DNA from: Candidatus Nomurabacteria bacterium | GTDB lineage: Bacteria; Patescibacteriota; Saccharimonadia; Saccharimonadales; VXPC01 | DNA: 64,000 nt | Direction of reading: 5' to 3' | NCBI GenBank assembly: GCA_020631905.1 | Contig: JACKGQ010000002.1 | Span: 789-64,788 of the forward strand | In this document: positions 2,634 to 62,473 of the stretch, piece by piece | Layout of the letters: every line of letters begins with the position of its first letter | How positions within the stretch are numbered: the first letter of the stretch is position 1 | Translations under genes and position numbers: made by a program | Notes under the pieces: generated by a model | What the model was told of the DNA's origin: nothing | Seen by the model: only the letters and a program-made list of their open reading frames with translations | The model's database searches: none

Positions 2634-2660
2634 TTAGCACTCGAGCGTCAAGAGTGCCAG
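2634..2660. promoter_or_regulatory. CIRCE-like (HrcA operator) inverted repeat upstream of clpB
   Basis: TTAGCACTC-N9-GAGTGCCAG matches 16/18 of the consensus TTAGCACTC-N9-GAGTGCTAA. It lies about 35 nt upstream of the clpB ATG. Confidence 0.65.
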
Positions 2661-2872
2661 TTTATTTGTTTTTGGATATGTATTTTCACTAGTAGATACA
2701 AGTTCTGGGGCAAATTTGTGTAATTTCCTTACATAAATCTGCATCCAGGTTTTGTAGGCACAGTGTAAATGTATAGCCAGAAGCAAAAAACTGGGATTCT
2801 TGACGCTAAAGTCAAGAGTGCTAATTTTGAAATTCCGTGTCTTGGTTACTATTTTAGTGGTAGAATTAAGTA

Positions 2873-8277: not shown

Positions 8278-8746
8278 CTTCTTTCTTCTTAGATTTGGTA
8301 GAAGTTTTTGCTTTTTTAGATTGCTCTAAATTTTTATAGGCAGTTCCGAGTACACCATTGATGAATTTGCTCGAGTTGTCGCCACCAAAACCTTTGGCTA
8401 GCTCGACAGCTTCGTTAATAACCACTTTTGGTGGAACACTAGGGCTATACTTTAGCTCGTATAGGCCAATCTCTAAGACTAGTCTATCGATTCTAGCTAT
8501 CTGATCAATCGGCCAATCTGGAGCAATCGGTTGCAGCTCGGTGTCTAGTTCTTTGGCCTTTTCTAGAACTGCTTTAACTAGGTCTTCTATGAATTGCTTA
8601 TCCTCGATAGTTTCGCTATAGCGCTGAATATTGCGCTGCAAAATCTCGGCGATATCGACATCTGGGTCGGCACATCCCACCCGAAAATCAAACTCATAAA
8701 GAGTTTGGAGTGTGACTATCCGGCCTAAGTGTCGGTTCGATGCCAT
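8246..8746 (-). CDS. nusB: transcription antitermination factor NusB
   Basis: NusB-like helical protein ([13 protein letters not shown]..., [35 protein letters not shown]) with a K-rich tail. Confidence 0.85.
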
Positions 8747-8803
8747 AGAATTACCTTGTTAATACTCTCCTACTGCAGCTCATTTTACCATGAGCTGAAA
8801 TGT

Positions 8804-8953
8804 TTATTTGGCTTTTTTTGAGCCAGTTTCGTTTTTAGTTGTGCGTGCCTTTACTGGTGACTTTGCGTTCACAGCTCGAGCCAACTTTAGTACCAAGTGG
8901 CTACGACGATTACCTGTGCGTCGCTTGGTAGTCTGTTTCTTTGGCTTACCCAA
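8804..8953 (-). CDS. rpmF: 50S ribosomal protein L32 (49 aa, TTG start; absent from ORF track)
   Basis: AAGGAGG-5 nt-TTG. Translation: (M)GKPKKQTTKRRTGNRRSHLVLKLARAVNAKSPVKARTTKNETGSKKAK*. TKRRTGNRRSH matches the L32 N-terminal motif (compare E. coli TRSKRGMRRSH). Confidence 0.7.
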   Translation of the reverse strand: MGKPKKQTTKRRTGNRRSHLVLKLARAVNAKSPVKARTTKNETGSKKAK

Positions 8954-11687: not shown

Positions 11688-12365
11688 ATGGGTAGAAGAA
11701 ATCGACATAAAGAACGAGCCAAACACGGTGGGCAGCTAGCCGACCACCGTCCTCCCGAACTACATACTGAAGATTACGGCCTGGTCACCCCAGAAGATCG
11801 GCGTGCAAGCGAAGCCTACTTGCGTTGGCTATGCCAATATGTAAATGCAGTTTACGATCACGGTGATCGAGACACACTCCGAAATCAAAGGTATCAAACT
11901 TCCGAAGTAGTCCACTGGCATAACCCGGAAGCCCAAAGAGAAGGAGCTCCTGATATAGACGCAACCGCCCAGTGGAACCGCAGATTCGGCGGACCGCAAA
12001 TAGTGCGCCTGCCAAATGTTTTGAGTGTTGGAGTTGGTGTAAGTTCTGAGGGGACTGGGGACGAAAGATTAACTGCAATATTCGACTCGGAAGGTGAGTT
12101 AGATGCGTTTAGATACAGTTTTAGTAGCCACGGCGATAACAACGTTGCTCGCCCTGCACCAGAAGCATCTGGAAAATCTATGGAGGAACTCCATGAACAA
12201 GCAATTTCTCGCCGAGCTGCTCGAATTATTCACATGTTTAGGTCTAACGTTCTTGGTGTAGATCCAGATAATCAGGCGCTCGTAATCCCGAAATCAGTAC
12301 CAAATTGGCTAGGTAGGCGTGTTGAACTATCGCCAGAACACTTGCCAGCACTTGTACTAGACTAA
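11688..12365 (+). CDS. hypothetical protein
   Basis: 225-aa ORF with moderately elevated GC (shadow ORFs on the opposite strand). No motif recognised. Confidence 0.55.
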   Translation: MGRRNRHKERAKHGGQLADHRPPELHTEDYGLVTPEDRRASEAYLRWLCQYVNAVYDHGDRDTLRNQRYQTSEVVHWHNPEAQREGAPDIDATAQWNRRFGGPQIVRLPNVLSVGVGVSSEGTGDERLTAIFDSEGELDAFRYSFSSHGDNNVARPAPEASGKSMEELHEQAISRRAARIIHMFRSNVLGVDPDNQALVIPKSVPNWLGRRVELSPEHLPALVLD

Positions 12366-15292
12366 ACTACAAAATTAACTAGGCGGCCGGGCACATAGAT
12401 TTCTTTTTTGGTGCCGCCACTCAAGTATTTTTTGACGTTTTCTAGCTCTTTGGCTGCTGCTAGCACATCGACTTCGGCAGAATCCGCTGCTATCTGCAGT
12501 TCTCCCCTGACCTTTCCATTAACCGATACGCCAATCGTGACTGTATCTTTTGTCAAATATGCATCGTCGTGCTCTGGCCAGTGATCTTTGTTTACGCTGT
12601 CCTCATGGCCTAGATCGTGCCATAGCTCTTCGGCGGTATGCGGGGCAAACGGGGCAATTAGCTGCACAAGACTTTCGAGCACAAACTGCCAATGGCTAGA
12701 GCTGTAACCATCTTTTTCTTTGAGTCTATATAGCTCGTTGGTGCAAGCCATCATCGAGGCGATCGCCGTGTTGTACTTGGTATCTTCTAGGTCTTTACTG
12801 GTTTTATGGATTGTGCTGTGAACTGTCTGTAGCAAGAGCTTATCGACATTATCAGTTATGTTTTTCTGGTTCTCAGAGCTTTTGGCATCGTTAAATTCTT
12901 GCACCAAGTTCCAGACCCGGTTTAAGAAACGGAAAGTGCCAGGCACACCTTGTGGATCCCAACGCATCCACAGCTCTAGCGGGGCAGCAAACATTAGATA
13001 GGTACGCAGCGCGTCGGCACCATAGCCATCGTTAATTATTTCTAGCGGGTCGACCCCGTTGCCTTTGCTCTTACTAAACATCGTACCGTCACTTGCAGTA
13101 ACTTTGCCGTTAAACAAGAAACGCTTGAATGGCTCGGGATTCTCCACCAAACCCTGTTTGTGTAAGAAACGTGTAATAAATCGGGCATAAATCATGTGAG
13201 CCGTAGCGTGGTCTCCACCGTTATAAAAGTCGATCGGCATCCATTTATTGACAACTTTGCTATCGAAAATGGCTTTTTCATTGCTTGGGTCAAAGTAACG
13301 TAGCATGTACCAGCTGCTGCAAATGTAGGTGTCGAGTGTGTCGGTTTCGCGCTCGGCTTGCCCGCCACATTCCGGGCAGGTAGTTTGCACCCAGTCGGTT
13401 GCGCGTGCTAGAGCGCTGCGGCCATCACCACTTGGGGCAAAATCTTCTAATTCTGGCAAAACCACTGGTAATTGGTCGTCTGGTACAAGTACCGGACCAC
13501 ACTCAACACAGTGCACCATCGGAATCGGCGCCCCCCAGTAACGTTGACGACTAACACTCCAGTCACGAATCTTATAAATTGTCTTTTCTTCGGCTACACC
13601 CTGCTTGGCAAGATCAGCCACAATCTGCTCCCGTGCTTCTGAACTTGATAGCCCGTTATATTTATCCGAATTAAATAACACACCTTCTTCAGTGAAAACT
13701 TCTGATTGGTATTCTCTACCCTCTTTATGAGCTTTTGCGGCTTCTCTTGCCCTCTCCATTCCAATTAACCAGTGCCCACGTCCCTCGGGCTCGTTGTTAA
13801 AGTCCGCTATTATCTCATCAAGCGTTGACCAATCTACTCTGTATGCCTCGTGCTCTTCAAGCATCTGCTTGTTCTGTTCTGTCTCGTCGATCACTGCCAT
13901 ATACAGGTAGCTAAACGATCGACGGTTGCTGTTTTTGTTTGGATTAAAGTAGTAAGAGTAAGTTGGTCCGCCTAGCTGTATAAGTTTTGAAACATTCTCA
14001 AAACCTGCCTCTTCTTTTAACTCTCTTAAGGCTGCGGTTTCATAACTTTCGCCATCTTCTAGACCACCCGATGCTAGCCAGCGCATGTCGTTCTTGGTGT
14101 TTATTAAACTCATGAATCTATCCGTCTCGGGATCATAGCCAAGAACCACCGGACCGGTCACATCAACCGCATCTACTAGAGGATTGCCAAACTCTGGTGC
14201 AACAACTTCAGTTATCTCTAAATTAAACTTTGTAGCGAATTCGAAGTCGCGCTCGTCGTGAGCCGGGACGGCCATGATTGCGCCTGTACCGTAGCCTACT
14301 AAAACGTAGTCGGCAATCCAGATTGGAATTTGCTTGTTATTGATAGGGTTAATGGCATAAGCGCCAGTAAACACACCTGTCTTGTCTTTGTTGGCTTGGC
14401 GCTCGACCTCGTCTTTCTTGGCTGCTGCTTTTTGGTAGGCTTCGACTTCCTCTCTTTGTTCCGGAGTTGTAACACTCGCCACCAACTCGTGCTCGGGAGC
14501 CAAAACTATAAATGTAGCCCCAAATAAAGTATCGGGACGCGTTGTAAAGACAGTTATTGACTGGTCTGTGTTGTCGATATTGAATATTATTTCGGCGCCT
14601 TTACTCTTGCCAATCCAGTTCTTTTGGGCAGTTTTGACAGCCTCTGTCCAATCTAGGGCATCGGTGGCTTCGAGCAGCTCGTCGGCGTAGTCGGTGATTT
14701 TAAAGAACCACTGCTTGACTTCACGCTTTTCAACAATCGGGTCGTCGGCACCGTCGTGCCTCCAACATTTGTCGTCGATTACTTGTTCGTTTGCCAGTAC
14801 GGTTTGGCATTTGGTACACCACCACTGCATCCGCGCGTCTTGGTAGGCCAGGCCGGCCCGATACATTTCGCTAAACAACCATTGTGTCCATTTGTAATAA
14901 ATTGGCTCGTGAGTAGCGATCTCTTTACTCCAGTCGTTGCTCCAACCCATAGCTTTGTACTGTTTGTGATAGCTCGGAATAATCGTGGCCATGCTAGCTT
15001 GGGGGCTAACCCCAGCTTTAATAGCGTAGTTTTCGGCTGGCAATCCAAAAGCATCCCAGCCAACAGGGTGGTAGCTTTCGTAGCCTTGCTGGCGCTTAAC
15101 CCGGGCTAGCACATCGCTGATTGTGTAATTCATAGCATGGCCGATATGAATACCAGCCCCACTGGGGTAGTTAAACATGCTCATGGCGATGTATTTTGGT
15201 TTGTCACTAGCCAGGTTGGCCTGATATGTCTTTTGCTCGTCCCACCAGGCTTGCCACTTGGGCTCAATATCTTTCGGGTTGTATCGTTTCAT
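12362..15292 (-). CDS. leuS: leucyl-tRNA synthetase carrying an inserted Nudix domain
   Basis: HIGH (PSGAGIHIGHAMNY) and KMSKS (TMFSKSKGNG) motifs, CP1 editing region (TTRPDT...GTGAIMAVPAHDERDFEFA) and zinc-type cysteines. It is 976 aa long because of a ~150-aa insertion with a perfect Nudix box. Confidence 0.97.
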   Translation of the reverse strand: MKRYNPKDIEPKWQAWWDEQKTYQANLASDKPKYIAMSMFNYPSGAGIHIGHAMNYTISDVLARVKRQQGYESYHPVGWDAFGLPAENYAIKAGVSPQASMATIIPSYHKQYKAMGWSNDWSKEIATHEPIYYKWTQWLFSEMYRAGLAYQDARMQWWCTKCQTVLANEQVIDDKCWRHDGADDPIVEKREVKQWFFKITDYADELLEATDALDWTEAVKTAQKNWIGKSKGAEIIFNIDNTDQSITVFTTRPDTLFGATFIVLAPEHELVASVTTPEQREEVEAYQKAAAKKDEVERQANKDKTGVFTGAYAINPINNKQIPIWIADYVLVGYGTGAIMAVPAHDERDFEFATKFNLEITEVVAPEFGNPLVDAVDVTGPVVLGYDPETDRFMSLINTKNDMRWLASGGLEDGESYETAALRELKEEAGFENVSKLIQLGGPTYSYYFNPNKNSNRRSFSYLYMAVIDETEQNKQMLEEHEAYRVDWSTLDEIIADFNNEPEGRGHWLIGMERAREAAKAHKEGREYQSEVFTEEGVLFNSDKYNGLSSSEAREQIVADLAKQGVAEEKTIYKIRDWSVSRQRYWGAPIPMVHCVECGPVLVPDDQLPVVLPELEDFAPSGDGRSALARATDWVQTTCPECGGQAERETDTLDTYICSSWYMLRYFDPSNEKAIFDSKVVNKWMPIDFYNGGDHATAHMIYARFITRFLHKQGLVENPEPFKRFLFNGKVTASDGTMFSKSKGNGVDPLEIINDGYGADALRTYLMFAAPLELWMRWDPQGVPGTFRFLNRVWNLVQEFNDAKSSENQKNITDNVDKLLLQTVHSTIHKTSKDLEDTKYNTAIASMMACTNELYRLKEKDGYSSSHWQFVLESLVQLIAPFAPHTAEELWHDLGHEDSVNKDHWPEHDDAYLTKDTVTIGVSVNGKVRGELQIAADSAEVDVLAAAKELENVKKYLSGGTKKEIYVPGRLVNFVV

Positions 15293-16093: not shown

Positions 16094-16684
16094 ATGGCAC
16101 AAACAAAGTTAGTTCTCACCGGCGGACCACACTCGGGCAAAACTACTCTTTTTAATCAACTAAAGGAAGCATTCCCAGAGGCCCATTTTGTGCCCGAACC
16201 AGCCGAGTCGGTAATTCTACGTGAGCTTGACAAACAAGCGATCGACCCCGACTATACGCCAATCCTGCCAACCACCGACTACCCGTCGTTCCTGCCAATA
16301 GTAGTCGACGAATCTTTGCGCTTAGAGGCTCTGGCAGCCGGCAGTGAGTTGGTAATTTGCGACCGTTCGCTTGTCGACAACCTAGCCTTTATCGCTATCA
16401 ACGCCGCTGGCGATTTAGCTACCCGGCATGTTAGCCGTCTAGCGGCAGCGGCTCGTTACAGCTTTGCATTGTTCCTCGAACAACTGCCAACTTACGCCAA
16501 TACTCCTGTCCGTCGTGAGTCCAGGGAATTTGCCGCTCGAATTGCCCTGGCAACCCACTCCGTATACGCCAACTGCTTTGCCGGCAATATGGCCGATCTA
16601 CCAGCTGTCGGCCTCGAGGCTCGAGCCGAACTTGCCAGGCAAAAAATCGAAGGTTTTTTGGCAGCAACCCAGAAAGCAAGTTAA
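16094..16684 (+). CDS. P-loop ATPase/kinase, AAA_28 (NadR C-terminal-like) type
   Basis: Walker A LTGGPHSGKTTL at the extreme N-terminus and Walker B-like LVICDRS. The ~190-aa size resembles NadR-type small-molecule kinases. Confidence 0.6.
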   Translation: MAQTKLVLTGGPHSGKTTLFNQLKEAFPEAHFVPEPAESVILRELDKQAIDPDYTPILPTTDYPSFLPIVVDESLRLEALAAGSELVICDRSLVDNLAFIAINAAGDLATRHVSRLAAAARYSFALFLEQLPTYANTPVRRESREFAARIALATHSVYANCFAGNMADLPAVGLEARAELARQKIEGFLAATQKAS

Positions 16685-17358
16685 TCAAACTTGAGATCGA
16701 GTACGAACTGATTGCTTTGTTTGCTAGCCTCGATTAATTCCTTAAACCCAGGTATAAACTGGCTGTAATCTTCTGCTTGCCAATCTGCCCAGTACGTCTC
16801 ACCAGCATGGTTGGTGTGTGTCTTCTTGTCGATAACCATACCCTCCCATAAATGACCGATCACGTGGTTCTCGATAAATTTATCTCGCCTGCTAACCAAG
16901 CTGAATTCACCCTTTAGAGTTAGTTTGACTTCTTTGGGTTGGTAACCACATTTCTCTTCGAGCTCGCGGTAGGCGGCTTCTTCTAGAGTTTCGCCTAAAT
17001 GGATTTTGCCACTCGGAAAACCCAGTGCATCGATATACGGCTGGCGTTTACGACGATACAATAAAGTTTGCTCGTCTTGGCTGTGTAGATAAATTACGCT
17101 CAAGGTTGTCGGCATAAGCCGAATGCCTGACTCGCGGATACTAAAGCGGGTCGCTAAAGCCTTGCCGGTCTCGGTTAGCTGGTACTGCTTGTCTTGCTTT
17201 TCGACTAAACCGGCTTTAATTAGCTCGTTGAGATGATACATAAAGGCGTTGGCCTCGAGCTCTTTCGGCTTGAGCTCGCTGTAGCGCATGCTCTCGGCAC
17301 CAACTAGACGGTTAAAGATTCGCCGCTGTATATGATGGCTAATATCTATCTGTTTCAC
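16681..17358 (-). CDS. winged-helix DNA-binding domain fused to a Nudix domain
   Basis: N-terminal wHTH (MRYSELKPKELEANAFMYHLNELIKAGLVEK). C-terminal Nudix box GKIHLGETLEEAAYRELEEKCGY. The domain order is the reverse of NrtR. Confidence 0.78.
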   Translation of the reverse strand: MKQIDISHHIQRRIFNRLVGAESMRYSELKPKELEANAFMYHLNELIKAGLVEKQDKQYQLTETGKALATRFSIRESGIRLMPTTLSVIYLHSQDEQTLLYRRKRQPYIDALGFPSGKIHLGETLEEAAYRELEEKCGYQPKEVKLTLKGEFSLVSRRDKFIENHVIGHLWEGMVIDKKTHTNHAGETYWADWQAEDYSQFIPGFKELIEASKQSNQFVLDLKFD

Positions 17359-27857: not shown

Positions 27858-28733
27858 TTACTGATTTAGGCTAAGCTCGGCCATATGTTGAGCTGCTTCT
27901 AAGTTATACGCCCCTGCCAGCCAACGTCCGTTATGGCAAAATTTTGCCCCAACCACCCCACATGCCTTTTCGAGCTCGGTATCGTTCAAGCCTGCCCAAC
28001 TGGCTGGGAAAGGCTGCCTCGGGTTAAAACCACGTTCGTCATCGGTGATTGCCCGTATATTGTATGAATCTCCTATCGAATTTGGCGCGATTACATAAAG
28101 AAGTTCGGGTTGATCTCTGGCAAAATCACCAAAAGGCAGCGGGTTGCTTAGTACAAGCAAACGCTTATCAGAAGTTTGACTGTAGGCGTCTTTTAGTTGA
28201 GTTAATGCTCGCATCTCGGCAGAGTACTTAGCAACCACCCGCTCTAAAACCCCTGTGGCAAAATCTAGCACGCGGCTAAAGGCTAGGTTGTAATCTTGAG
28301 GCTGGTCGAACGCTGGGTAAAACATTTTAATGTATAGGTCGATATCATTAGGTCGAACACCAAAATCTGTCAACGCAAACAGTTCCTGGCCATTATCATT
28401 GGCATCGATTGCCATCACAAATTTTTGGTTAATTAGTTCGGCAAGCTCTTGGTCGCCACTACAGTAATCTGCACCATAAACTTGCCAGATTAACCCCAAG
28501 CTCGATAGTTTGATACCATTTTCGTGATACACGTTAAACTCCGCCATGTGGTGGTCAAACCGACCTTTGCTCGGATCGTATACCCCGCCGACGTCGTAGA
28601 CAATCTGGCAGTCGGCAAGCACCACTAAATTACGACTACGCACTAAGTCTGCGCCTGGAAAAAGCTTGCGCAAAACTACCGTTGCAAAGACTTCATCGGC
28701 GTGGAAGGGCCCGTCGTGAGTCGCAATTCTCAT
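27858..28733 (-). CDS. MYG1/UPF0160 family metal-dependent hydrolase
   Basis: N-terminal MRIATHDGPFHADEVFA is the MYG1 signature. Typical ~290-aa length. Confidence 0.85.
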   Translation of the reverse strand: MRIATHDGPFHADEVFATVVLRKLFPGADLVRSRNLVVLADCQIVYDVGGVYDPSKGRFDHHMAEFNVYHENGIKLSSLGLIWQVYGADYCSGDQELAELINQKFVMAIDANDNGQELFALTDFGVRPNDIDLYIKMFYPAFDQPQDYNLAFSRVLDFATGVLERVVAKYSAEMRALTQLKDAYSQTSDKRLLVLSNPLPFGDFARDQPELLYVIAPNSIGDSYNIRAITDDERGFNPRQPFPASWAGLNDTELEKACGVVGAKFCHNGRWLAGAYNLEAAQHMAELSLNQ

Positions 28734-28770
28734 GTCTGTAGTATAACAGTCTGTTCAACTTGGCTTTACA

Positions 28771-28799
28771 TTGTATATTATAGTATTTTATGCTATAGT
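28771..28799 (+). promoter_or_regulatory. sigma70-type promoter with extended -10 in front of cassette 2
   Basis: TTGTAT-17 nt-(TGC)TATAGT. The segment TTTATGCTATAGTATAAG closely resembles the cassette-1 promoter TTTATGCTATAATATAAT. It is followed by the hairpin GGTAC-n7-GTACC. Confidence 0.45.
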
Positions 28800-28833
28800 A
28801 TAAGTTGGTACCTCTTGTGTACCTACATTAACA

Positions 28834-28846
28834 AGTCATAGATAGA
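28834..28846. repeat. left arm of 13-bp perfect inverted repeat bracketing cassette 2
   Basis: AGTCATAGATAGA. The right arm TCTATCTATGACT lies at 29533-29545. Confidence 0.75.
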
Positions 28847-28869
28847 GTTGTGCCTGCATGGGTCGATTT

Positions 28870-28915
28870 CTGGTGAGCTAGCTGTTCTGCTTACCCAGAC
28901 CAGCTAGCTCACCAG
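28870..28915 (+). promoter_or_regulatory. 15-bp perfect hairpin in the 5' leader of the cassette-2 gene
   Basis: CTGGTGAGCTAGCTG-16 nt-CAGCTAGCTCACCAG, ending 24 nt before the ATG. Confidence 0.6.
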
Positions 28916-28939
28916 AAAACTCCAACGAAAGGACACGAC

Positions 28940-29458
28940 ATGAGCACCGACACCGAAGTAATTGGCGAGCTCGTCAGGCTGCAGATCCGGCTCGACGAGC
29001 TCAACGCCGAGGAGTGTGAGATCTTGGCCAGCGAGGCCGCCATGGCGGTCACCGCCGAGATCTTCAGACTGAGGGGAGAACAGTACCGGCTCAGCGCCGA
29101 TGAGAAGCTTGCCGGTATGCACTATGCCGGCTACACGACCGACCAGCTCGACGTCGTCAACACCCAGTTCGAGGAGCGGCGGCGCAGTCTGAAGATAGCG
29201 CTGGTCGAGAACAACGAGCGCGGCAACCAGCTGGTCGCCAGCGTCAAGGCCGAGATCGAGGCTGTCAATGCCCAGATCGAGGCCAAGATGGACGAGCTGA
29301 TCACTAGCGGCACTATCAGGCCGATCTCGCCGCTCTTCGTCGTCTTCGCCGGCCAGGGCGACATCGATCTTTCCGACGAAATCGCCGACGACCTCTTCGC
29401 TTTCTCCGACGAGGAAGATGACGATGAAGGAGACGACATCGAGGTCGTCTGGGACTGA
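28940..29458 (+). CDS. GC-rich hypothetical coiled-coil protein with poly-acidic tail
   Basis: 172 aa. G/C dominates third codon positions on the plus strand only, so the overlapping minus-strand ORFs are shadows. C-terminus FSDEEDDDEGDDIEVVWD. Confidence 0.6.
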   Translation: MSTDTEVIGELVRLQIRLDELNAEECEILASEAAMAVTAEIFRLRGEQYRLSADEKLAGMHYAGYTTDQLDVVNTQFEERRRSLKIALVENNERGNQLVASVKAEIEAVNAQIEAKMDELITSGTIRPISPLFVVFAGQGDIDLSDEIADDLFAFSDEEDDDEGDDIEVVWD

Positions 29459-29465
29459 CCCACTT

Positions 29466-29499
29466 GGCCGAACCGGAGGCACTCGCTTCCGGTTCGGCC
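29466..29499 (+). terminator. GC-rich hairpin without U-tract closing cassette 2
   Basis: GGCCGAACCGGA-10 nt-TCCGGTTCGGCC, a perfect 12-bp stem starting 8 nt after the stop. Confidence 0.5.
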
Positions 29500-29532
29500 A
29501 CCTGGTCACCTTGCCCTACAAATGCTCGACTT

Positions 29533-43995: not shown

Positions 43996-45588
43996 TTACT
44001 TCTTCTTCACATCCCCCGGACGCACCTTGGCAATCGGCTTGCAGACCAAGTCTTTGGCCTTGCTGGCAACGAAGCGGACACGCCTGGTTTGAGGCAACGA
44101 ACGCCGGTTGATACCAAGGGGTTCGTCTGGACCGCCAACACGGCAGGAGATCTCGGCAAGGCGCCTCTCCATCCTGGCATTGGAGTCAAAGAGCCGTTCG
44201 AGTAGCTGGTTGAGCGGCCTGCCAAGCAATACGGAAAGCAGCTTGAAGACGATGTACAGCAAGAGGTAGATCAGTCCTGCCGCAATCACCAACGCAACTG
44301 GGCTCAACAACAACAGCCAGACGAGGGACGAACCGACGAACCGACTGGTGATGAAAGTGCCTAGCAGAACAATCGAAAAGACCAGCGGATTGAACACCCA
44401 CAAGATTGGATTGGTAGCACCCTGCAACCAGCCACTCTCATCGACCTTCGTAAACCACCGGCTGGTACGGCGTCGCTTCTTTCTGCCCTCTTTGATGAAG
44501 TCTTCGCGCCAGGCGGGCTTCAGCGAAGCGAGCACGCCGTAGTCGATATCCCTGATGCCAACGATTGCCAACACGACCACCGTATGCAGATTCCAGAGCC
44601 ACGCAAGTAGCCCCAGCAAGAACAAGCCCGGCTTCTTGAGGACGTTCTTGGTCAAGACCTCCAACGCCCGGTCGCGACGATCGCACTGGTTCATGGCCGG
44701 CCGGCCGGCGCGTTCGTGCTTGCTTGCAAGCCACTCGACAAGTCGACTGGCTTTGGCCGGGGCGAACAGCTTGCTGTCGATCTCGACCACTTCCCGCCCA
44801 GTGTTCCGTGAGCGATAGAAACCAGCAATCCGCGACACAAACTGAATCGTGTAGTCGCGGTCTGGCGAACGCCGCTCTTGCTCGAGCTCCGATTTCAGCA
44901 GATTTAGTTGCTCTCGCAACCCAGCCAGCTGGCTTTCGAGTTCGGAAATCTTTGCTAGATCGGCTTGCGGCCGATGAGCTTCACGAAACTCCGGATCAGT
45001 ATTGTGCTGCTCGAGACGGAACTCAGCTTCTTCGAGGGCATCTTCCAAGCGAAGTCTTTCGACTTCGTCTGGATCCATACCATCGGTGACCTTCTGGAGC
45101 GGACGCATTGCGTCCAACTCATGCCTCAGATCCCACTTATGCGAGTCAATTGCACGCTCCAACTTGTCGATCTGAGCCATCAAGCCAGCCGGATCGGCGT
45201 AAACCCTCTCGAGAACCGAGAGCAAGAATCTGCCATCGATCTCAGACCGCTTAGTCAAATGGTGAATGTGCTTGCGCCATCCCAACTTTGAGTTTTCCGG
45301 CCAGACAACAACCATCATGACGGTGGTCTCGCCGGGGTATTCGAACGAATGGTGGGCCAGGCCGGCCTCTAGAGGCACAACCACACGCTGGACTTCGACG
45401 TCGTCGACCAAGAAGCACATCAGTAGGTGCGGCCTCTTTCTCCGTATTTCTTCGCTATCGAGCTCTGCCTCCAGCGGTGCACGAGTACACCACCGTAGCA
45501 CAGCATTCGGATCATCGATCACTTGCTCCCCCGAAGGGAAGATGATCGCCCGATCCGTAATCACGGGCTTAGTATCTGTGACTGTCAT
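43996..45588 (-). CDS. GC-rich hypothetical protein: soluble N-terminal half, coiled coil, C-terminal multi-TM region
   Basis: AAGGAG-5 nt-ATG at 45588 (the ORF-track start at 45615 has no RBS). Coiled-coil stretch ELESQLAGLREQLNLLKSELEQERR. TM segments include GLFLLGLLAWLWNLHTVVVLAIVGI and LLLLSPVALVIAAGLIYLLLYIVF. Confidence 0.65.
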   Translation of the reverse strand: MTVTDTKPVITDRAIIFPSGEQVIDDPNAVLRWCTRAPLEAELDSEEIRRKRPHLLMCFLVDDVEVQRVVVPLEAGLAHHSFEYPGETTVMMVVVWPENSKLGWRKHIHHLTKRSEIDGRFLLSVLERVYADPAGLMAQIDKLERAIDSHKWDLRHELDAMRPLQKVTDGMDPDEVERLRLEDALEEAEFRLEQHNTDPEFREAHRPQADLAKISELESQLAGLREQLNLLKSELEQERRSPDRDYTIQFVSRIAGFYRSRNTGREVVEIDSKLFAPAKASRLVEWLASKHERAGRPAMNQCDRRDRALEVLTKNVLKKPGLFLLGLLAWLWNLHTVVVLAIVGIRDIDYGVLASLKPAWREDFIKEGRKKRRRTSRWFTKVDESGWLQGATNPILWVFNPLVFSIVLLGTFITSRFVGSSLVWLLLLSPVALVIAAGLIYLLLYIVFKLLSVLLGRPLNQLLERLFDSNARMERRLAEISCRVGGPDEPLGINRRSLPQTRRVRFVASKAKDLVCKPIAKVRPGDVKKK

Positions 45589-56015: not shown

Positions 56016-56128
56016 TAATTTTTTCATACTTAGTGTTGACATTACATTATGTATGGAGTACTCTTTGTATAGTGTGGTATGTACACTTACTGCACATGCT
56101 CATTAACAATCTAGTCAGGGAGTGCTCC

Positions 56129-56944
56129 ATGCAACCTTACGAATTCGCAACTGCCTCCCAGATTGGGAGACGGCATCGAGAAGCCAGTCGCAATAATCAA
56201 GACGCTTTGCTCGTTCGCCTACCCCGCTCTGCCGTCGAACCGACGGTCGCGGTTGTTAGTGATGGCTGCGGTAGCACACCACATAGCGAACTTGGCGCGT
56301 TTCTGCTCGTCAGACTGTTTGCGGACTTGATAGCCCGAGATAATGGGTCGATTCACCGCTTAGAGCAGCGTTTGGCAGAGATTGCCACACAACTCAAGCT
56401 CCTGGCCAGGCAACTGTCCGGACAAGACGAGCTGGTGCTTGCAAGCATGCTTGCAACACTTGTTGCGGCTGTGATTGGACCGGATAATGCACACTTCATC
56501 GTCGTCGGCGATGGTGTGGTGACTATCAACGGCGAGACTCGTATGTTCACTGACGGTGACGGTACCCCACCTTATCTTGGGTATGCCGCACTTGAAGATC
56601 AGAACCTCTACCGCCCAATCGAAGCATTACCGATCAACACAATCACACTGCCGCGTGCCGACCTCACAGACTTCGTGATTGCCAGCGATGGACTTGGCGA
56701 TCTGATCGATCATCAAGATTCATTGCTCCCCGGCAGTTCGCAAGAAACCGTTGGCAAGCTGGATAAGCTGTGGACCAGCGACTCATTCTTTACCAACCCC
56801 GACGCATTACGCCGTTACTTGGCGAGAGTTAACCGAGACGTTAGTAAGTTCGACCGCGCAAGCGGCGAGCTAACACATTACCGGGGACTCCTCGACGACG
56901 ACACGACTGTAATCGTTGGCCGACGCCTCAAAATGGAGGGCTAA
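56129..56944 (+). CDS. PP2C-family Ser/Thr phosphatase
   Basis: PP2C motifs AVVSDGCGS, VVGDGVV, IASDGLGD, DDDTTVIVG. The ATG at 56129 is where GC content rises; the ORF-track start at 56033 lies in the AT-rich spacer. Confidence 0.8.
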   Translation: MQPYEFATASQIGRRHREASRNNQDALLVRLPRSAVEPTVAVVSDGCGSTPHSELGAFLLVRLFADLIARDNGSIHRLEQRLAEIATQLKLLARQLSGQDELVLASMLATLVAAVIGPDNAHFIVVGDGVVTINGETRMFTDGDGTPPYLGYAALEDQNLYRPIEALPINTITLPRADLTDFVIASDGLGDLIDHQDSLLPGSSQETVGKLDKLWTSDSFFTNPDALRRYLARVNRDVSKFDRASGELTHYRGLLDDDTTVIVGRRLKMEG

Positions 56945-58782
56945 TGACAACCGTATATATCAATGGTGCGGCCATTCGCCTGACCTCCTCGATGGCACTC
57001 GGGAAAGGTGGTGAAGCGGACGTTTACAAGTACAAAGGCCAAGCCCTGAAGTTGTACAAAGCACCGAATCACCCAGATTTTGTGCACACGCCATTTGAGC
57101 GTGACGCAGCTACTCGGCGGCTACAGCTTGCCCAGACTAAGCTTCCGGCTTTCCCGACAGGTCTGCCTTCGCAGATCATCGGGCCAGACGAACTGGTCAT
57201 GGACAAGAATGGCAAGATCGTCGGGTTCACAATGCCGTTGATCGATGGTACCGTACCGCTCAAACGCTACGGTGAGCGTAGCTGGCGTGATAGCCAAGCT
57301 TTCGACCACCAAGCGGTCTTGCAGATCTTCACCGATCTGCATAGTACATTGAGTGCGGTACATAACCATGGCATGGTAATTGGTGACTTTAACGATCTTA
57401 ACGTCTTGATCAAAGACGACCAAGCGTTCCTAATCGACGCCGATAGCATGCAGTATGGCCAGTACCCGTGTACGGTTTTCACGACACGCTTCGCCGACCC
57501 CCTGATTCTCACCGAGGATCAAGGACAGTTAACGATGGCGCGCTCGTTTTCGACCACAACGGATTGGTATGCCTACGCTGTCATGTTGATGCAATCACTG
57601 GTCTACGTCGACCCGTATGGGGGCGTTTTCCGGCCAGCGGACAAAAAACATCAGCTGGCTGCCAGCCTGCGACCGTTGCACAGGATAACCGTTTTCCACC
57701 CGGAAGTCCGCTATCCAAAGCCAGCCCTACCGCTAAACGTTTTGCCACTTGCCTTGAGTGAATATTTCCACGAAGTGTTCGTTAATGATCTCCGCGAGGA
57801 GTTCCCCACCGATCTTCTGGACTCCTCGCTCTGGACACAGCGAACGTTGGCTCTAAGTGCCATACGTACCCCGCAGACCGTAAGTGGTGATGTTGTCGTT
57901 ACCGTGTTGTTCGATGCATCCGACCACCGGATTTTGGCTGTCGGTTACTTCAAGCAAGGCATGGTCTGGCTGACGCATGATGGTTCGTGTTACCAGCGCG
58001 AATCGGATCGCTTTAGGCTCGACGGCCCACTTGATGGGAGTGTTCGCTTCCAGCTGGCTGGCAACACCACCTTGATGGCCAAGCATGGCCGGCTGATTAT
58101 CTTCAACCCAGATGGGACGAAGGAGATCAAGTCGGTTGACAGTGTTGGCCAGTTGCCGGTAATCGCCAGCAACAGCCAGCACGTCTTCTGGGTTAAGGAC
58201 GGCCTGCTAATGCGTCGTGGTCGCTTCGGCGACTCGGCAGTTGGCCAGGTCTTGCGCGATCAAACCGTAATTTGGGCAGGTGAGACATTCGGCTTCGGCT
58301 ACTACCGCGCCGGCGAACTCGAGCAGGCTTTCCTGTTCGACACCAACGGTCGTGGTATTAACGACAATTTCTCGCTCTCGCCTATTCCGGGAAATTTGAT
58401 TGACATGACGGCCACGTTTAGTGACTCGCTCGTGTGGTTCTTTGCTGCCTTCATGCACGGCGGCCAGGAATATCGCAAGATTAGCGTAATCGACCACCAC
58501 GGCAACGTGTTGGTTGATGAAACGCAAGACTACGCCGCCGACGGCTGGCACGCCAACATTCGCGGCTTTGCAGCTGCTGGCAGTCTGTTGTTTGCGGCAA
58601 CCGATGAAGGCCTGGTGCGTATCGAGATCGTGGCCGGAAAGCTCAAGGTAACTCAGCGTTACCCAGACACCGAACCCTACCTCGACCACACTAGTCGGCT
58701 CTTCACCCATGCGAAGGGGATCTTCGCCGTCACCCATGGTCAGATCATCGATCTGGCCCTCAAACCGAAAGGAACACCATGA
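56944..58782 (+). CDS. protein kinase-like domain with ~330-aa C-terminal non-kinase domain
   Basis: Gly-loop LGKGGEADVY, Lys ALKLYK, catalytic loop GDFNDLNVLI, DFG-equivalent LIDADS. The start overlaps the phosphatase stop (TAATG). Confidence 0.8.
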   Translation: MTTVYINGAAIRLTSSMALGKGGEADVYKYKGQALKLYKAPNHPDFVHTPFERDAATRRLQLAQTKLPAFPTGLPSQIIGPDELVMDKNGKIVGFTMPLIDGTVPLKRYGERSWRDSQAFDHQAVLQIFTDLHSTLSAVHNHGMVIGDFNDLNVLIKDDQAFLIDADSMQYGQYPCTVFTTRFADPLILTEDQGQLTMARSFSTTTDWYAYAVMLMQSLVYVDPYGGVFRPADKKHQLAASLRPLHRITVFHPEVRYPKPALPLNVLPLALSEYFHEVFVNDLREEFPTDLLDSSLWTQRTLALSAIRTPQTVSGDVVVTVLFDASDHRILAVGYFKQGMVWLTHDGSCYQRESDRFRLDGPLDGSVRFQLAGNTTLMAKHGRLIIFNPDGTKEIKSVDSVGQLPVIASNSQHVFWVKDGLLMRRGRFGDSAVGQVLRDQTVIWAGETFGFGYYRAGELEQAFLFDTNGRGINDNFSLSPIPGNLIDMTATFSDSLVWFFAAFMHGGQEYRKISVIDHHGNVLVDETQDYAADGWHANIRGFAAAGSLLFAATDEGLVRIEIVAGKLKVTQRYPDTEPYLDHTSRLFTHAKGIFAVTHGQIIDLALKPKGTP

Positions 58783-59825
58783 GTCTCGTACTCCCAAACT
58801 TCTACCAACCGACCAATGCTGAGGTCTGGGGCTATAACCCGGACATTCAGGCACTGGCAGGCGTTGCCGAGCAGTACCGACAGGACAACAAGATCCTGCC
58901 GGCCGCCGGTGATCGCCGTCGGATCGAGCTGCTGCTGATCGATTTGCAGGGTGACTTTACCTATCCGGAAGGCACTCTGTATGTCGGCGGTCGCTCTGGT
59001 CGTGGGGCGATCGAGGATATTCAGCGAGTTGCGGAGTTCATCTACCGTAACCTGGATGTCATCACCAACATCACTACCACCCTGGACACGCACTTCGCCT
59101 TCCAGATCTTCTTCCCCTGGTTCTGGCAGAACGCCGCCGGCAATTCACCGGCAGCGCACACCATCATCACCACGGAAGACATTCGGAAGGGTGTCTACAC
59201 GCCCAACCCGGCTGTCGCCGGCCTGTTGGTCGGCGGCAACTACCAGTGGCTGCTCAAGCAGGTCGCATTCTATGTGGCCGAGCTCGAGCGAGCGGGCAAG
59301 TACCAGCTTTACCTCTGGCCGCCGCACACTCTGCTGGGCAGCGTCGGTCACGTCCTGAACGGCGTGATCCACGAAGCGCGGATGTTCCATGCGCTGACTC
59401 GCTTCAGCCAGTCGGGTTCGGAGATCAAGGGCGGCAATGCGCTGACCGAGAACTACTCCGTGCTCCGACCGGAGGTGCTGATGCGCTGGGACGGCGAACC
59501 GCTGGACCAGAAGAACACCCGCTTCATCGAGTCGCTCCTCGAGAACGACTACGTCGTGATCGGCGGCGAGGCCGCCAGCCACTGCGTCAGCAGCTCGATC
59601 GACGATCTGCTCGGCGAGATCCTGGCCAAGGACCCGGCACTGGCCGCCAAGGTTTACATCTTGGCGGACTGCATGTCGGCAGTCGTCGTGCCCGATGGCA
59701 ACGGCGGCTTCCTGGCCGATTTCACGCCGCAGGCAGAGGCCGCTCTCGAGCGCTTCCGTCAGGCCGGCATGCACGTGGTCAAGTCGACCGATCCGATCAC
59801 TTCCTGGCCGGACTTCCGGCTCTGA
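58779..59825 (+). CDS. nicotinamidase/isochorismatase-superfamily cysteine hydrolase (enlarged, PncA-like)
   Basis: Catalytic Asp LLLIDLQGDF, Lys block IKGGNALTENYS (compare E. coli PncA HKGENPLVDSYS), Cys GGEAASHCV, metal-site-like LDTH and LWPPH. ATGA overlap with the kinase stop. The most GC-rich gene by eye. Confidence 0.72.
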   Translation: MSLVLPNFYQPTNAEVWGYNPDIQALAGVAEQYRQDNKILPAAGDRRRIELLLIDLQGDFTYPEGTLYVGGRSGRGAIEDIQRVAEFIYRNLDVITNITTTLDTHFAFQIFFPWFWQNAAGNSPAAHTIITTEDIRKGVYTPNPAVAGLLVGGNYQWLLKQVAFYVAELERAGKYQLYLWPPHTLLGSVGHVLNGVIHEARMFHALTRFSQSGSEIKGGNALTENYSVLRPEVLMRWDGEPLDQKNTRFIESLLENDYVVIGGEAASHCVSSSIDDLLGEILAKDPALAAKVYILADCMSAVVVPDGNGGFLADFTPQAEAALERFRQAGMHVVKSTDPITSWPDFRL

Positions 59826-59835
59826 CATACACCCC

Positions 59836-59869
59836 GGCTGGACAGGTTCATTCTTGTGCCTGTCCAGCC
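59836..59869 (+). promoter_or_regulatory. intercistronic 11-bp perfect hairpin
   Basis: GGCTGGACAGG-12 nt-CCTGTCCAGCC, between the hydrolase stop and the vWA start. No U-tract. Confidence 0.6.
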
Positions 59870-59891
59870 ACCGCTTTCGAAAGAAGGAACA

Positions 59892-60665
59892 ATGAGCGAT
59901 TCAATCACCGACCTCTTCGCCGACGCCGTCGATGAAGGGGCTCTCACCAAGGCATCCCTGCGGGTACTCGCCACCCCGGACATCAACACCAAGCTCCAAG
60001 CTGCCATGGGCGTTGATGTCGACAATGTCATGGCCAGCGAAGTCGTCTTGGTCAACATCCTGATGGACAACTCTGTCTCGATGGGGCCGATGAAGGCTAC
60101 GGCCATGGATGGTCAGAACGAGGTCGTCGACGCCCTCCTGGCGACCAAGGAGGTCGACGGTGTGCTGATGCTGAGCACATTGCTCAACGGTGGGGCAGTT
60201 GGTGGCTACCAGCCGCTGGACACATCGTCCAAGCTGGACGCCAAGACCTACCGCATCACCGGCAACACACCACTGTACGAACGAACAGTCGATGTCTTGG
60301 CTGCCATGGTCGCCAAGACGCAGGCTTTCGTCAACGGTGGTGTGCCCGTCCGAACGATCACCCTGATCGTGACTGATGGTGGCGACAACGCTTCCAGGCA
60401 TACCTCGGCCGATGTCAAGCAGGTGGTTACCGACCTCACCAGGCAGGAACACCACATCATTGCCGGCATGGGTATCGACGACGGATACACCGACTTCGTG
60501 GACGTGTTCACGGGCATGGGGATTCCCGATCAGTGGATCCTGACACCCGGCAATTCCAAGAGCGAGATTCGGGCAGCGTTCCGAGTCTTCTCGCAGTCGG
60601 CTGTGCGTGTCAGTCAGTCGGCCGCCAGCATGAGCCAGGTCGCCCTCGGCGGCTTCGGCACCTGA
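59892..60665 (+). CDS. von Willebrand factor A (vWA, TerY-like) domain protein
   Basis: MIDAS residues LMDNSVSM (D-x-S-x-S), GNTPLY (Thr), LIVTDGGDN (Asp). GAAGGAAC-a-ATG at 59892. Confidence 0.8.
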   Translation: MSDSITDLFADAVDEGALTKASLRVLATPDINTKLQAAMGVDVDNVMASEVVLVNILMDNSVSMGPMKATAMDGQNEVVDALLATKEVDGVLMLSTLLNGGAVGGYQPLDTSSKLDAKTYRITGNTPLYERTVDVLAAMVAKTQAFVNGGVPVRTITLIVTDGGDNASRHTSADVKQVVTDLTRQEHHIIAGMGIDDGYTDFVDVFTGMGIPDQWILTPGNSKSEIRAAFRVFSQSAVRVSQSAASMSQVALGGFGT

Positions 60666-60758
60666 AGGAGGTAGCGAGACCTTCGGGAAAACAGCAGGCT
60701 TGATCGCCTCAATGATCGAGCATTAACTGCAACAAACCTGCGGACTCGCCCGCAATCA

Positions 60759-60808
60759 GTGAGTTGGGGTCGGTTGAGTAGCCTCGTGCTACTCCCGACC
60801 CCGCTCAC
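60759..60808 (+). terminator. long GC-rich compound hairpin without U-tract closing the operon
   Basis: GTGAG-tt-GGGGTCGG-tt-GAGTAGC-ctcgt-GCTACTC-CCGACCCC-g-CTCAC. Confidence 0.5.
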
Positions 60809-60862
60809 AAGCAACTTATCACTATTCATCTAAAACTAGTCAAACTTAATAAAACAAGTATT

Positions 60863-62473
60863 ATGAAGTACATGTATACATATCTATTGGTTCCGGGCAG
60901 GCATCATTTATTAAGTAATTTTATGCACGATTACTTTTTACAGGCTAGTAATAATCGCAGTATCGAATTAATCGACGGTAGCCAAGCCGAGTTTGATGAA
61001 AGTATCTGCATGGTTTGGGCAATCACTTCAGCTAATCATCAAAACACTCGGCGCAATCCGTTGGCCGGATACCGTCGCGAAGCTGCTGTTGATGAATTTA
61101 TGGCAGATTTGCCATGTCAATATCTGACTTACCATATCAACGATATCGGCCAATCTAACCGGTTTGCCGACTATATAATCAAATCTATCGAGGTTGAGAG
61201 CCGAGGCTCAACATTACTAACTCCCGATAACACAATTGTGGCAACCTCAACCCCAAGTGTAATTGAGCTATTCGAAACCTTGGGCTACAAAATTGCACCG
61301 ATTGAGCTTTCTAGCCGACAGCCAGAGCAATACCGTGCTGCTCGCGCCTGGGACATATTGCTGGAGCTGGTGGCGGCCGGCAACAATTGGCGTGATTCCG
61401 AAAGTTATATCCAACAGATGCATCCAAGTAGTCAGAGATTGCTTGACAGATACAAGCTAGCCGAGCAAATTATCGAACTCCATAACGATCCATTGGTTGG
61501 CGATGAGGGCGACATAACAGAGACTCGTGATTACGAAAAGTACCGTCAATCTTTCGATACTGGCGCCGAACGTAAATACGCTATTCTTGGCCCCCATATT
61601 CGGCCAGGCAGAATTATCGATATCGGCTGCGCAACTGGATCTTTACTAAAGCAAATCGACAACGACGATCGTTTTCGTGAATCTGATTTATACGGTATCG
61701 AAGTTGCCAAACCGCTTTACGATCGGTGCTTGCAACGCCTTGCCAATGGCGAGTTTCGGAATGAAAACACTTTCTTTTACCAACGTAATATTATGCGAGG
61801 CAAACTATTCCCAGACAACAGCGTCAATACATCAATTAGTATCTCATTAACGCACGAGATTGATTCCTACCTTGGACGAGATAGTCTACACAAGTTTATT
61901 AGTCAGATTTTCCAACAAACGGCACCAGGTGGCGTATACATCAATCTAGATGTCACTTGCCCGGAAAACCCAGACGAAAAGGTGGTAATCTGGCTAAACC
62001 ACCTCGATGGCCAGGATGCTGACGATCAAGAATACGCGATCGATCGCCAGACAGATTATAGTGAGTACCTTGGCAAGCTATCGACACTTGGCTTGTTTAA
62101 GCGTTTCATCAAAGATTTTCGAAAAACTGAAGGCGATCAGATCAAAGATTACGAATTATTCGAAAAAGATGAGCAGTATTTTGCTAGACTGCGCCGCGCC
62201 GATGCTGTTGAATTTATGGTAACTAAAGACTACCAAGATAGCTGGTATAGCGAAATGCACGAGCGGTTCTGTTATTGGCCGCCGAGCGAATGGCAGAGGC
62301 AACTCGAAGCCGTTGGCTTTAGTGTTGACCCAGCTTCGGGAGCTTTCCAGAATGATTGGATCAATCAGAACAGATTCGAAGGTAAGCTTAAGTTGTTTAT
62401 TGAAATCGATGGCCAGCTCGTACCTCAGGACTGGCCAGATACCAGTGTATTGATGGTTGCACGCAAGCCGTAA
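60863..62473 (+). CDS. class I SAM-dependent methyltransferase with ~230-aa unassigned N-terminal domain
   Basis: Motif I RIIDIGCATGSLL at about residue 250, then post-I and motif II/III spacing (DLYGIEVA, GGVYINLDV). The N-terminal LVPGRHHLLSNFMH is only vaguely nucleotidyltransferase-like. Confidence 0.68.
   Translation: MKYMYTYLLVPGRHHLLSNFMHDYFLQASNNRSIELIDGSQAEFDESICMVWAITSANHQNTRRNPLAGYRREAAVDEFMADLPCQYLTYHINDIGQSNRFADYIIKSIEVESRGSTLLTPDNTIVATSTPSVIELFETLGYKIAPIELSSRQPEQYRAARAWDILLELVAAGNNWRDSESYIQQMHPSSQRLLDRYKLAEQIIELHNDPLVGDEGDITETRDYEKYRQSFDTGAERKYAILGPHIRPGRIIDIGCATGSLLKQIDNDDRFRESDLYGIEVAKPLYDRCLQRLANGEFRNENTFFYQRNIMRGKLFPDNSVNTSISISLTHEIDSYLGRDSLHKFISQIFQQTAPGGVYINLDVTCPENPDEKVVIWLNHLDGQDADDQEYAIDRQTDYSEYLGKLSTLGLFKRFIKDFRKTEGDQIKDYELFEKDEQYFARLRRADAVEFMVTKDYQDSWYSEMHERFCYWPPSEWQRQLEAVGFSVDPASGAFQNDWINQNRFEGKLKLFIEIDGQLVPQDWPDTSVLMVARKP

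Follow-up and report, generated by a model that had tools for sequence, protein, structure and literature searches.

A nicotinamidase-like hydrolase joined to a kinase, phosphatase and vWA triad in an apparently imported NAD-linked module of a Saccharibacterium

Introduction

The stretch of DNA analysed here (the window) covers 64,000 nucleotides of contig JACKGQ010000002.1 from a Saccharibacterium and carries, towards its end, a block of four same-strand genes encoding a PP2C-family phosphatase, a YegI-like Ser/Thr kinase, a long-form hydrolase resembling the nicotinamidase PncA and a protein with a von Willebrand factor A (vWA) domain. With a probability of roughly 60%, we read this block as a horizontally acquired copy of a conserved module linked to nicotinamide adenine dinucleotide (NAD), in which nicotinamide salvage responds to the regulator NrtR and the nicotinamidase is coupled to a phospho-switch. 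That is, the module is best described as a YegI/TerY-P-like triad (kinase, phosphatase and vWA protein) functionally fused to NrtR-controlled nicotinamide salvage. We favour a role in regulated NAD homeostasis because the conserved neighbours of the module are NAD-salvage and ADP-ribose genes and because NrtR-type operators accompany it. The module is widespread and, in the literature, apparently undescribed: a literature search, with most subscription-journal papers outside its scope, returned no description of a nicotinamidase tied to a kinase, a PP2C phosphatase or a vWA protein.

The features of the block, given in window coordinates, are as follows.

56030-56050, + strand: NrtR-type operator 1, TTAGTGTTGACATTACATTAT, a 21-bp palindrome with a GT-N7-AC core
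56069-56089, + strand: NrtR-type operator 2, ATAGTGTGGTATGTACACTTA, 39 bp 3' of operator 1 and 40 bp 5' of the PP2C start codon
56129-56944, + strand: PP2C-family Ser/Thr phosphatase, 271 aa (Pfam PP2C_2, acidic motifs intact)
56944-58782, + strand: YegI-like kinase (~aa 1-290) followed by a seven-bladed beta-propeller (~aa 310-612), assigned by hhalign and a fold model
58779-59825, + strand: long-form PncA-like hydrolase, 348 aa, assigned by family alignment and hhalign against E. coli PncA
59836-59869, + strand: intercistronic hairpin in the hydrolase/vWA gap (dG -31.3 kcal/mol, z -5.8)
59892-60665, + strand: vWA-domain protein, 257 aa, assigned by AlphaFold model, Foldseek and alignment of its metal-binding residues
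60759-60808, + strand: GC-rich long hairpin at the end of the unit (dG -43.3 kcal/mol, z -7.3)

A conserved module of two gene pairs

Database relatives of the hydrolase family number more than 3,700, the nearest of which (62-67% identity) all come from Myxococcota. In a scan of genomes, one for each species, 546 had relatives, and gene order was surveyed in the best 80 loci of that scan, nearly all of them from Myxococcota (individual loci are cited below by our own numbers, such as L093). In 75 of the 79 surveyed loci the hydrolase gene is directly followed by the vWA gene, and these two genes form the tightest pair in the module. The kinase gene is found 5' in 58/63 loci, either directly adjacent (40) or with inserted genes between (18), and a PP2C gene was found in 59 loci. 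What recurs, in other words, is two tightly linked pairs, PP2C-kinase and hydrolase-vWA, occurring together. The synteny that the original prediction proposed to look for is thus present in other genomes, and these counts rule out chance adjacency of the hydrolase.

The module recurs across hundreds of genomes as well as in huge phages, and for this reason we regard the hydrolase as a core member and not, as first supposed, as an enzyme inserted into a pre-existing triad. All four genes occur together in Cyanobacteria and in bacteria of the candidate phyla radiation (CPR), the latter represented by one Patescibacteria, one Sungbacteria and one Uhrbacteria metagenome-assembled genome (MAG). At four loci the hydrolase gene is accompanied by pncB, nadE or nrtR and lacks the PP2C, kinase and vWA genes. 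The cassette closest to that of the window is L093, with identities of 69% for the hydrolase, 54% for the vWA protein, 46% for the kinase and 37% for the phosphatase.

Two observations on individual cassettes are worth recording. At L093 (10828-13088) and L094 (10900-12837), public gene calls run on the wrong strand over the GC-rich hydrolase and vWA genes; these calls conceal the cassettes, and tblastn recovers the real genes. In Leptolyngbya sp. 'hensonii' (L092), the cassette is broken by two Uma2-family endonuclease genes (2450-3100 and 8279-8884), and an ADP-ribosylglycohydrolase gene lies between the PP2C and kinase genes.

NAD-salvage context and NrtR-type operators

Bacterial cassettes usually adjoin nrtR and genes of Preiss-Handler salvage. 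Genes for nicotinate phosphoribosyltransferase (NAPRTase), NAD synthase and NADAR proteins recur as neighbours of the cassette. In particular, nrtR is present in 40 of the 80 surveyed loci and stands directly 5' of the PP2C gene in 29. At L089 a single run comprises NADAR, NrtR, the cassette, canonical PncA, NAD kinase, NUDIX, NAPRTase and NAD synthase genes; L119 has the order nrtR, cassette, NAD kinase, NAPRTase. Neighbours at L092 and L093 include ADP-ribosylglycohydrolase, PnuC and a NadR-like gene. A defence-type context is thus not supported: the conserved neighbours are NAD-salvage and ADP-ribose genes, with a pair of NrtR-type operators in the upstream DNA.

NrtR operators are 21-bp palindromes with a GT-N7-AC core, and ADP-ribose frees NrtR from DNA (Rodionov et al. 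2008, PMC2330246). Within the 64 kb of the window, the two operators upstream of the PP2C gene are the only sites within 2 mismatches of TAGTGT-N7-ACACTA. Operator 1 encloses a -35-like hexamer, TTGACA (56036-56041), and can be aligned base for base with ATAGTGTTGACAACACACTAT of L093 and ATAGTGTTGACAAGACACTAA of L094; the site pair as a whole aligns in the same manner with the L093 and L094 pairs, TTGACA in the first site included. Since the operator region is homologous among these three copies, the regulatory DNA is part of the same unit as the genes. More broadly, at least one GT-N7-AC palindrome lies within 250 bp 5' of the PP2C gene in 51/58 loci, and two lie there in 35/58 (background rate, 0.12 per 240 bp). 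Of 18 split clusters, 13 have a separate site 5' of the hydrolase gene.

Elsewhere in the window, a gene on the minus strand (16681-17358) encodes a 225-aa protein with an N-terminal winged helix-turn-helix (wHTH) and a C-terminal NUDIX domain, the reverse of the domain order of NrtR. It is arranged tail-to-tail with a gene for a 196-aa AAA_28 (NadR-kinase-like) protein at 16094-16684. The wHTH-NUDIX protein may be the host's own NAD/ADP-ribose-sensing regulator; the scan of the window for TAGTGT-N7-ACACTA found no site near its gene.

The long-form hydrolase

At 348 aa, the hydrolase exceeds E. coli PncA (213 aa) by about 130 residues. D55, K217 and C269, the Asp-Lys-Cys triad read from the single sequence in the original prediction, are invariant across 20 aligned relatives, as are D103, H105 and H183 of a DxH...WPPH motif. 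Compared with E. coli PncA, the family profile reaches an hhalign probability of 95.7%, and the alignment pairs WPPH, KGGN (K217) and SHCV (C269) with WPDHC, KGEN and DYCV of PncA. Two motifs align with the Leishmania nicotinamidase 3r2j: D55 falls on DMQVDF, and WPPH on WPPHC. The NCBI label for the protein is 'nicotinamidase', and many of its relatives carry a precomputed PF00857 match.

On the basis of established PncA structures, we take D103, H105 and H183 to be the metal ligands. The DxH...(WPxH) metal site of PncA binds the pyridine nitrogen and, to our knowledge of PncA structures, the DxH...WPPH metal-site motif is typical of nicotinamidases and missing from other isochorismatase-like enzymes. 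Judged from its sequence, the hydrolase is PncA-like, a predicted member of the isochorismatase-like cysteine hydrolase family whose catalytic triad and metal site appear intact.

Some hydrolase relatives (L089, 7189-8931; P0043) carry an N-terminal extension of about 240 aa without a Pfam match.

The phosphatase, kinase and vWA protein

The triad of vWA protein, PP2C phosphatase and Ser/Thr kinase that had been proposed is borne out by Pfam, alignment and fold evidence, and the catalytic motifs first read from the window proteins are, for all four, invariant in the family alignments. The phosphatase matches Pfam PP2C_2 (E=1e-18). Its family motifs QD, DGxG, GDG, DG and DD are invariant, and D25, D45, D128, D187, D257 and D258 are conserved without exception, including in a huge-phage copy and in E. 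coli PphC.

Library scores of the kinase are weak (Pkinase, 1.7e-4; LanL kinase domain, 7e-10). The family alignment shows no variation at its motif residues G20xGG, K36, D148, N153 and D165, and the family profile matches E. coli YegI with an hhalign probability of 98.8% (E=4e-17, 279 columns). The same relationship is found by tblastn (E=9e-14, 27% identity over 281 aa). A CxxC..CPxC zinc ribbon follows right after the kinase domain in 23 of 27 aligned relatives; this ribbon is deleted in the window kinase and three near relatives. The C-terminal ~320 aa are modelled as a seven-bladed beta-propeller (predicted local distance difference test score, pLDDT, 90.8), with generic propeller matches in Foldseek.

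Searched singly and as a profile, the vWA protein had no match in Pfam, NCBIfam or the PDB sequences, and none from PADLOC either. Its AlphaFold model (pLDDT 87.6; predicted template modelling score, pTM, 0.88) returned 160 PDB matches in Foldseek at E<=1e-3, all of them vWA/I-domains. The fourth protein is therefore assigned to this class only because structure prediction resolved what the sequence searches missed. In the family alignment, residues D59, S61, S63, T126 and D162 of the metal ion-dependent adhesion site (MIDAS) are invariant. The protein also has a ~50-aa N-terminal helical extension and a conserved, Ser-rich C-terminal tail, SQSAVRVSQSAA..ALGGFG, encoded at 60590-60662, the last ~20 residues of which are modelled at low confidence. 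This tail is a candidate phospho-acceptor, short linear docking motif or propeller ligand.

Architecture, composition and origin of the block

ORF calling (open reading frame, ORF) returned the four co-directional genes and their overlaps as originally described, and NCBI gene calls on the same contig (Candidatus Saccharibacteria MAG GCA_020428525.1) give the same four products, of 271, 612, 348 and 257 aa. The TAATG and ATGA overlaps (genes 1-2 and 2-3) follow from the ORF coordinates. The PP2C gene is translationally coupled to the kinase gene, and a GGGAG ribosome-binding site lies 8 nt 5' of the PP2C ATG. Both previously noted hairpins stand out against shuffled sequence. The one between the hydrolase and vWA genes (z -5.8) has a perfect 11-bp stem, with 12 pairs in the fold, and may be an element of mRNA processing, stability or attenuation. 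The one at the end of the unit (z -7.3) resembles a terminator, though it lacks a U tract. A scan for consensus promoters and terminators found nothing above shuffle expectation and called neither hairpin, and an Rfam scan of the block found no riboswitch and no other RNA family.

The GC content of the block is 0.573 vs 0.456 in the remainder of the window, in line with the GC-rich island first reported. At third codon positions (GC3), the values are 0.56 for PP2C, 0.64 for the kinase, 0.81 for the hydrolase and 0.78 for the vWA gene, vs 0.36-0.50 in flanking genes. Shadow ORFs on both strands are visible in the ORF list of the block. The L093 cassette likewise has a GC3 above that of its neighbouring genes, and on account of this foreign GC3 the version without a zinc ribbon looks imported in at least two mid-GC genomes (those of the window and L093). 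The suggestion of horizontal acquisition is upheld in this form: from its composition, the block looks foreign and horizontally acquired by a Saccharibacterium. On the other hand, the heptamer CTAGTCA, which had been pointed out at both composition boundaries, does occur at both places but numbers 6 in the window vs 6.05 expected. We reject it as an insertion-site repeat and, because its occurrence is at chance level, it is uninformative on where the block begins and ends.

An internal GC3 gradient, with the hydrolase and vWA genes above the PP2C and kinase genes, is common to the window, L093 and L094. It hints at separate histories for the two gene pairs, or at assembly from two sources before the cassette spread. 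Two further 1-kb patches of raised GC lie in the window, at about 44001-45500 (0.57) and 28501-29500 (0.55), in surroundings of 0.46.

Two other genes of the window may be mentioned. The downstream neighbour of the block (60863-62473, + strand) codes for a protein of 536 aa in which a class-I methyltransferase domain lies at the centre, between N- and C-terminal regions without annotation; the gene's composition is native, and it has no evident tie to the cassette. A leucyl-tRNA synthetase of 976 aa (12362-15292, - strand) carries a NUDIX insert at aa 406-499 (Pfam E=3e-13), just after the editing domain. Such a NUDIX insertion is an unusual fusion for an aminoacyl-tRNA synthetase.

Copies in phages

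Eleven IMG/VR contigs, 41-436 kb in length and 0.28 to 0.68 in GC, also carry the cassette. On one of them, genes for NAD synthase, NAPRTase, a PIF1 helicase and RNase H are interleaved with the cassette. At L099 the cassette adjoins NAD synthase and NAPRTase genes, and NAPRTase genes are nearby at L100 and L101. Distant relatives of the hydrolase occur in three GenBank huge-phage genomes, two of which also have a relative of the kinase. The 485-kb genome of the huge phage LR745208.1 has the hydrolase gene first, then vWA, three ORFs, PP2C_2, a single ORF and the kinase. Both the kinase and the vWA protein have matches among PHROG families of unknown function.

Relation to known systems

According to the passages of PMC10542128 that draw on Anantharaman et al. 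(2012), TerY-P consists of a TerY vWA protein, a PP2C phosphatase and a Ser/Thr kinase with a C-terminal zinc ribbon; the same passages relate, after Gao et al. (2020), that an OB-fold (oligonucleotide/oligosaccharide-binding) version of TerY-P is anti-phage. As in TerY-P, a vWA protein, a PP2C phosphatase and a Ser/Thr kinase are encoded side by side in the module, and most module kinases have the CxxC..CPxC ribbon directly C-terminal to the kinase domain. The kinase of a Klebsiella Ter plasmid, when compared with the module kinase family, is aligned by hhalign through the zinc ribbon at a marginal probability of 24%. In contrast to TerY-P, the module has a fixed fourth, enzymatic partner (the long PncA), and its kinase ends in a beta-propeller rather than in a ribbon or OB fold, with the ribbon missing altogether from the window copy. 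Its vWA protein has no detectable sequence kinship with TerY (hhalign probability 0.2% for the vWA profile against the TerY-C protein of the Ter plasmid, and 15% against YegL), and its context is NrtR and NAD salvage instead of ter genes or restriction systems. Among the Pfam-annotated neighbourhoods examined, none showed a ter gene next to the cassette.

We had also considered PADLOC as a test of TerY-P membership. It gave no TerY-P model match and no system-level match for the four proteins. Two control triads, E. coli yegI/pphC/yegL and that of the Klebsiella Ter plasmid, had no TerY-P model match either, so the test was dropped: as genuine triads go unrecognised too, the negative result is uninformative. 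The relation to TerY-P is architectural only. Taken as a whole, the original prediction was right about the triad, the PncA-like enzyme, the synteny and the foreign look of the block; its picture of an insertion into a TerY-P system proper was not sustained.

A second related system is the E. coli gene cluster encoding YegI (kinase), PphC (PP2C-like) and YegL (vWA) (bioRxiv 10.1101/819920, 10.1101/303594). The module kinase is clearly homologous to YegI, and the module phosphatase shares the PP2C_2 catalytic motifs of PphC, with a weak tblastn match (E=3e-4). Both clusters include a vWA gene, the products of which can barely be aligned. Unlike the module, the E. coli cluster has no nicotinamidase and stands in another gene context. 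The hhalign match to YegI stops at residue 332, and nothing in the aligned part of YegI corresponds to the module propeller.

As for the metabolic half of the module, the NrtR-regulated pncA-pncB(-nadE) operons (PMC2330246) likewise place a PncA-type enzyme behind 21-bp GT-N7-AC palindromes, and the module is often accompanied by adjacent nrtR, pncB and nadE genes. It differs from these operons in that its PncA is a long form of ~350 aa and, unlike in the regulons listed in that study, is locked to a vWA protein and a kinase/PP2C pair. Myxococcota and CPR bacteria were outside the scope of the NrtR study (PMC2330246).

Jumbo phages carry gene clusters for the Preiss-Handler pathway and NAD synthesis (PMC11662467), and megaphage G has a PncA-like gene (PMC12484599). 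Some of the cassette-bearing IMG/VR contigs resemble such huge phages with pncA-like, pncB and nadE genes, in that NAPRTase and NAD synthase genes adjoin; unlike in the module, neither paper mentions a linked kinase, PP2C phosphatase or vWA protein. Finally, predicted anti-ADP-ribosylation systems centred on ADP-ribosylglycohydrolase (ARG) and regulated by Nudix or WYL proteins have been described (Iyer et al. 2022, PMC9503650, section 3.8). The likeness extends to a Nudix-HTH regulator, NADAR and ADP-ribosylglycohydrolase neighbours, the logic of ADP-ribose induction and a vWA protein, which is an occasional 'chaperone' in the ARG-centred systems. These have an ADP-ribosylglycohydrolase core and phosphatases of other families, unlike the module. 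PMC9503650 describes no nicotinamidase, Ser/Thr kinase or PP2C phosphatase, and the words nicotinamidase, PncA and isochorismatase are absent from it. Identity with the ARG-centred Nudix-regulated systems is rejected on the ground that the core genes differ.

Proposed mechanism

Cleavage of NAD releases nicotinamide together with ADP-ribose. From what is known of PncA and NrtR, we propose that ADP-ribose from cleaved NAD would release NrtR from the operators and derepress the operon. The 348-aa hydrolase, acting as a metal-dependent nicotinamidase, would then convert the co-released nicotinamide to nicotinic acid for use by PncB. More tentatively, the YegI-like kinase, the phosphatase and the MIDAS-containing vWA protein could together make up a reversible phospho-switch that acts on or around the nicotinamidase, with the beta-propeller of the kinase as a possible sensor or docking domain. 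Such a switch might gate or scaffold the nicotinamidase and so set the pace at which nicotinamide is removed and recycled. Judging by the tight pairing of their genes, the protein most likely to partner the hydrolase directly is the vWA protein.

Weighing the explanations

Several points weigh against this NrtR-responsive, phospho-switched salvage module as we have described it. No nrtR, pncB, nadD or nadE gene was found within the 64-kb window; the operators may therefore be relics, and salvage may be incomplete in this host. Most viral copies have no NrtR-type site (only two of the 11 IMG/VR contigs keep one); NrtR control is therefore no inherent part of the module. The window hydrolase scores 19.1 bits vs a Pfam Isochorismatase cut-off of 27 and departs from near-invariant family residues (K58G, C61T, C184T). 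Moreover, a canonical short PncA adjoins the cassette in several genomes. For this reason the long form probably does more than plain salvage, and the coexistence speaks for an isoform under regulation of its own instead of a simple substitute for canonical PncA. Action of the kinase on the hydrolase or vWA protein, as well as binding of these proteins to one another, is a proposal drawn from gene context.

Some of the same observations can be turned towards a hydrolase that is no nicotinamidase but acts on another amide or ester, or on a protein-linked group, with the triad as a general signalling system that is merely co-regulated. We consider this unlikely. Its ~130 extra residues relative to E. 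coli PncA, the sub-threshold Pfam score, the merely partial alignment to solved nicotinamidases and the presence of canonical PncA in the same operon would all suit such an enzyme; the invariant DxH...WPPH motif, characteristic of nicotinamidases, speaks against it, as do the four loci at which the long form stands alone beside pncB, nadE and nrtR and appears to be the sole PncA. Still more doubtful is TerY-P-like anti-phage defence, in which the triad would sense infection and switch on a nicotinamidase effector, which might destroy nicotinamide needed by phages for NAD reconstitution or disturb NAD-derived metabolites. The architecture fits TerY-P (PMC10542128), down to the zinc ribbon in most family kinases; the cassette acts like a mobile unit of foreign composition in no fewer than two genomes (those of the window and L093); ADP-ribose-inducible control would suit a response to NADase-type immunity; and the kinase has weak PADLOC matches to the defence kinases PD-T4-6 and MkoA. 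Yet the neighbours are genes that build NAD (pncB, nadE, NAD kinase) and not defence genes, and the module is present in nearly all of the best 80 loci (mostly Myxococcota), unlike a patchy defence island. Huge phages, furthermore, carry it together with NAPRTase and NAD synthase, its vWA protein is not TerY-like and its kinase is only remotely like that of the Ter plasmid. PADLOC found no system-level match, although the same library missed the control triads too.

A module for NAD replenishment or counter-defence overlaps with the salvage module that we favour, the difference being that its selective advantage would lie in conflict rather than in housekeeping. In huge phages, it would restore NAD after NADase immunity of the host, with the phospho-switch timing its activity; nicotinamide would be cleared and PncB and NadE fed, and in bacteria the same reactions would serve recovery from NAD depletion. 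This account is possible, though we lean against it. It draws on the cassettes of the IMG/VR contigs, with NAD synthase and NAPRTase adjoining in L099 and NAPRTase near in L100 and L101, on the distant versions in GenBank huge phages and the PHROG matches of the kinase and vWA proteins, on the Preiss-Handler clusters known from jumbo phages (PMC11662467), and on the NADAR, ADP-ribosylglycohydrolase and NUDIX genes that neighbour the bacterial copies. However, the viral status of the IMG/VR contigs rests on their listing in IMG/VR and not on hallmark genes, there are only about a dozen viral instances vs hundreds of bacterial ones, and the bacterial copies stand in ordinary chromosomal contexts. 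The link between nicotinamidase and counter-defence is itself putative.

In its most speculative form, which we likewise hold to be improbable, the module would be a dedicated, phospho-gated device for clearing nicotinamide in the bacteria-phage arms race over NAD, induced via NrtR by ADP-ribose, which arises from NADase immunity or ADP-ribosylation. The kinase/PP2C/vWA switch, with the propeller as its sensor, would decide when the long-form nicotinamidase is active; NAD would be rebuilt via PncB and NadE, or nicotinamide would be withheld from the NAD-reconstitution or NADase enzymes of the opponent. Such a device, if real, would account for carriage by both bacteria and huge phages and for the horizontal movement of the module.

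Implications

Control of bacterial NAD salvage is attributed mainly to transcription, through NadR, NiaR and NrtR. A conserved kinase/PP2C/vWA trio locked to a nicotinamidase would add a layer of post-translational control. With it, the poorly understood YegI/TerY-P-type triads would gain a first concrete metabolic partner, and their mechanism would become testable. Carriage by huge phages and the ADP-ribose-type operators connect the module with present research interest in how NAD is depleted and reconstituted in the conflict between phages and their hosts. For the Saccharibacterium itself, the block is a clear case of an epibiont with a reduced genome importing a complete regulated unit, operators included.

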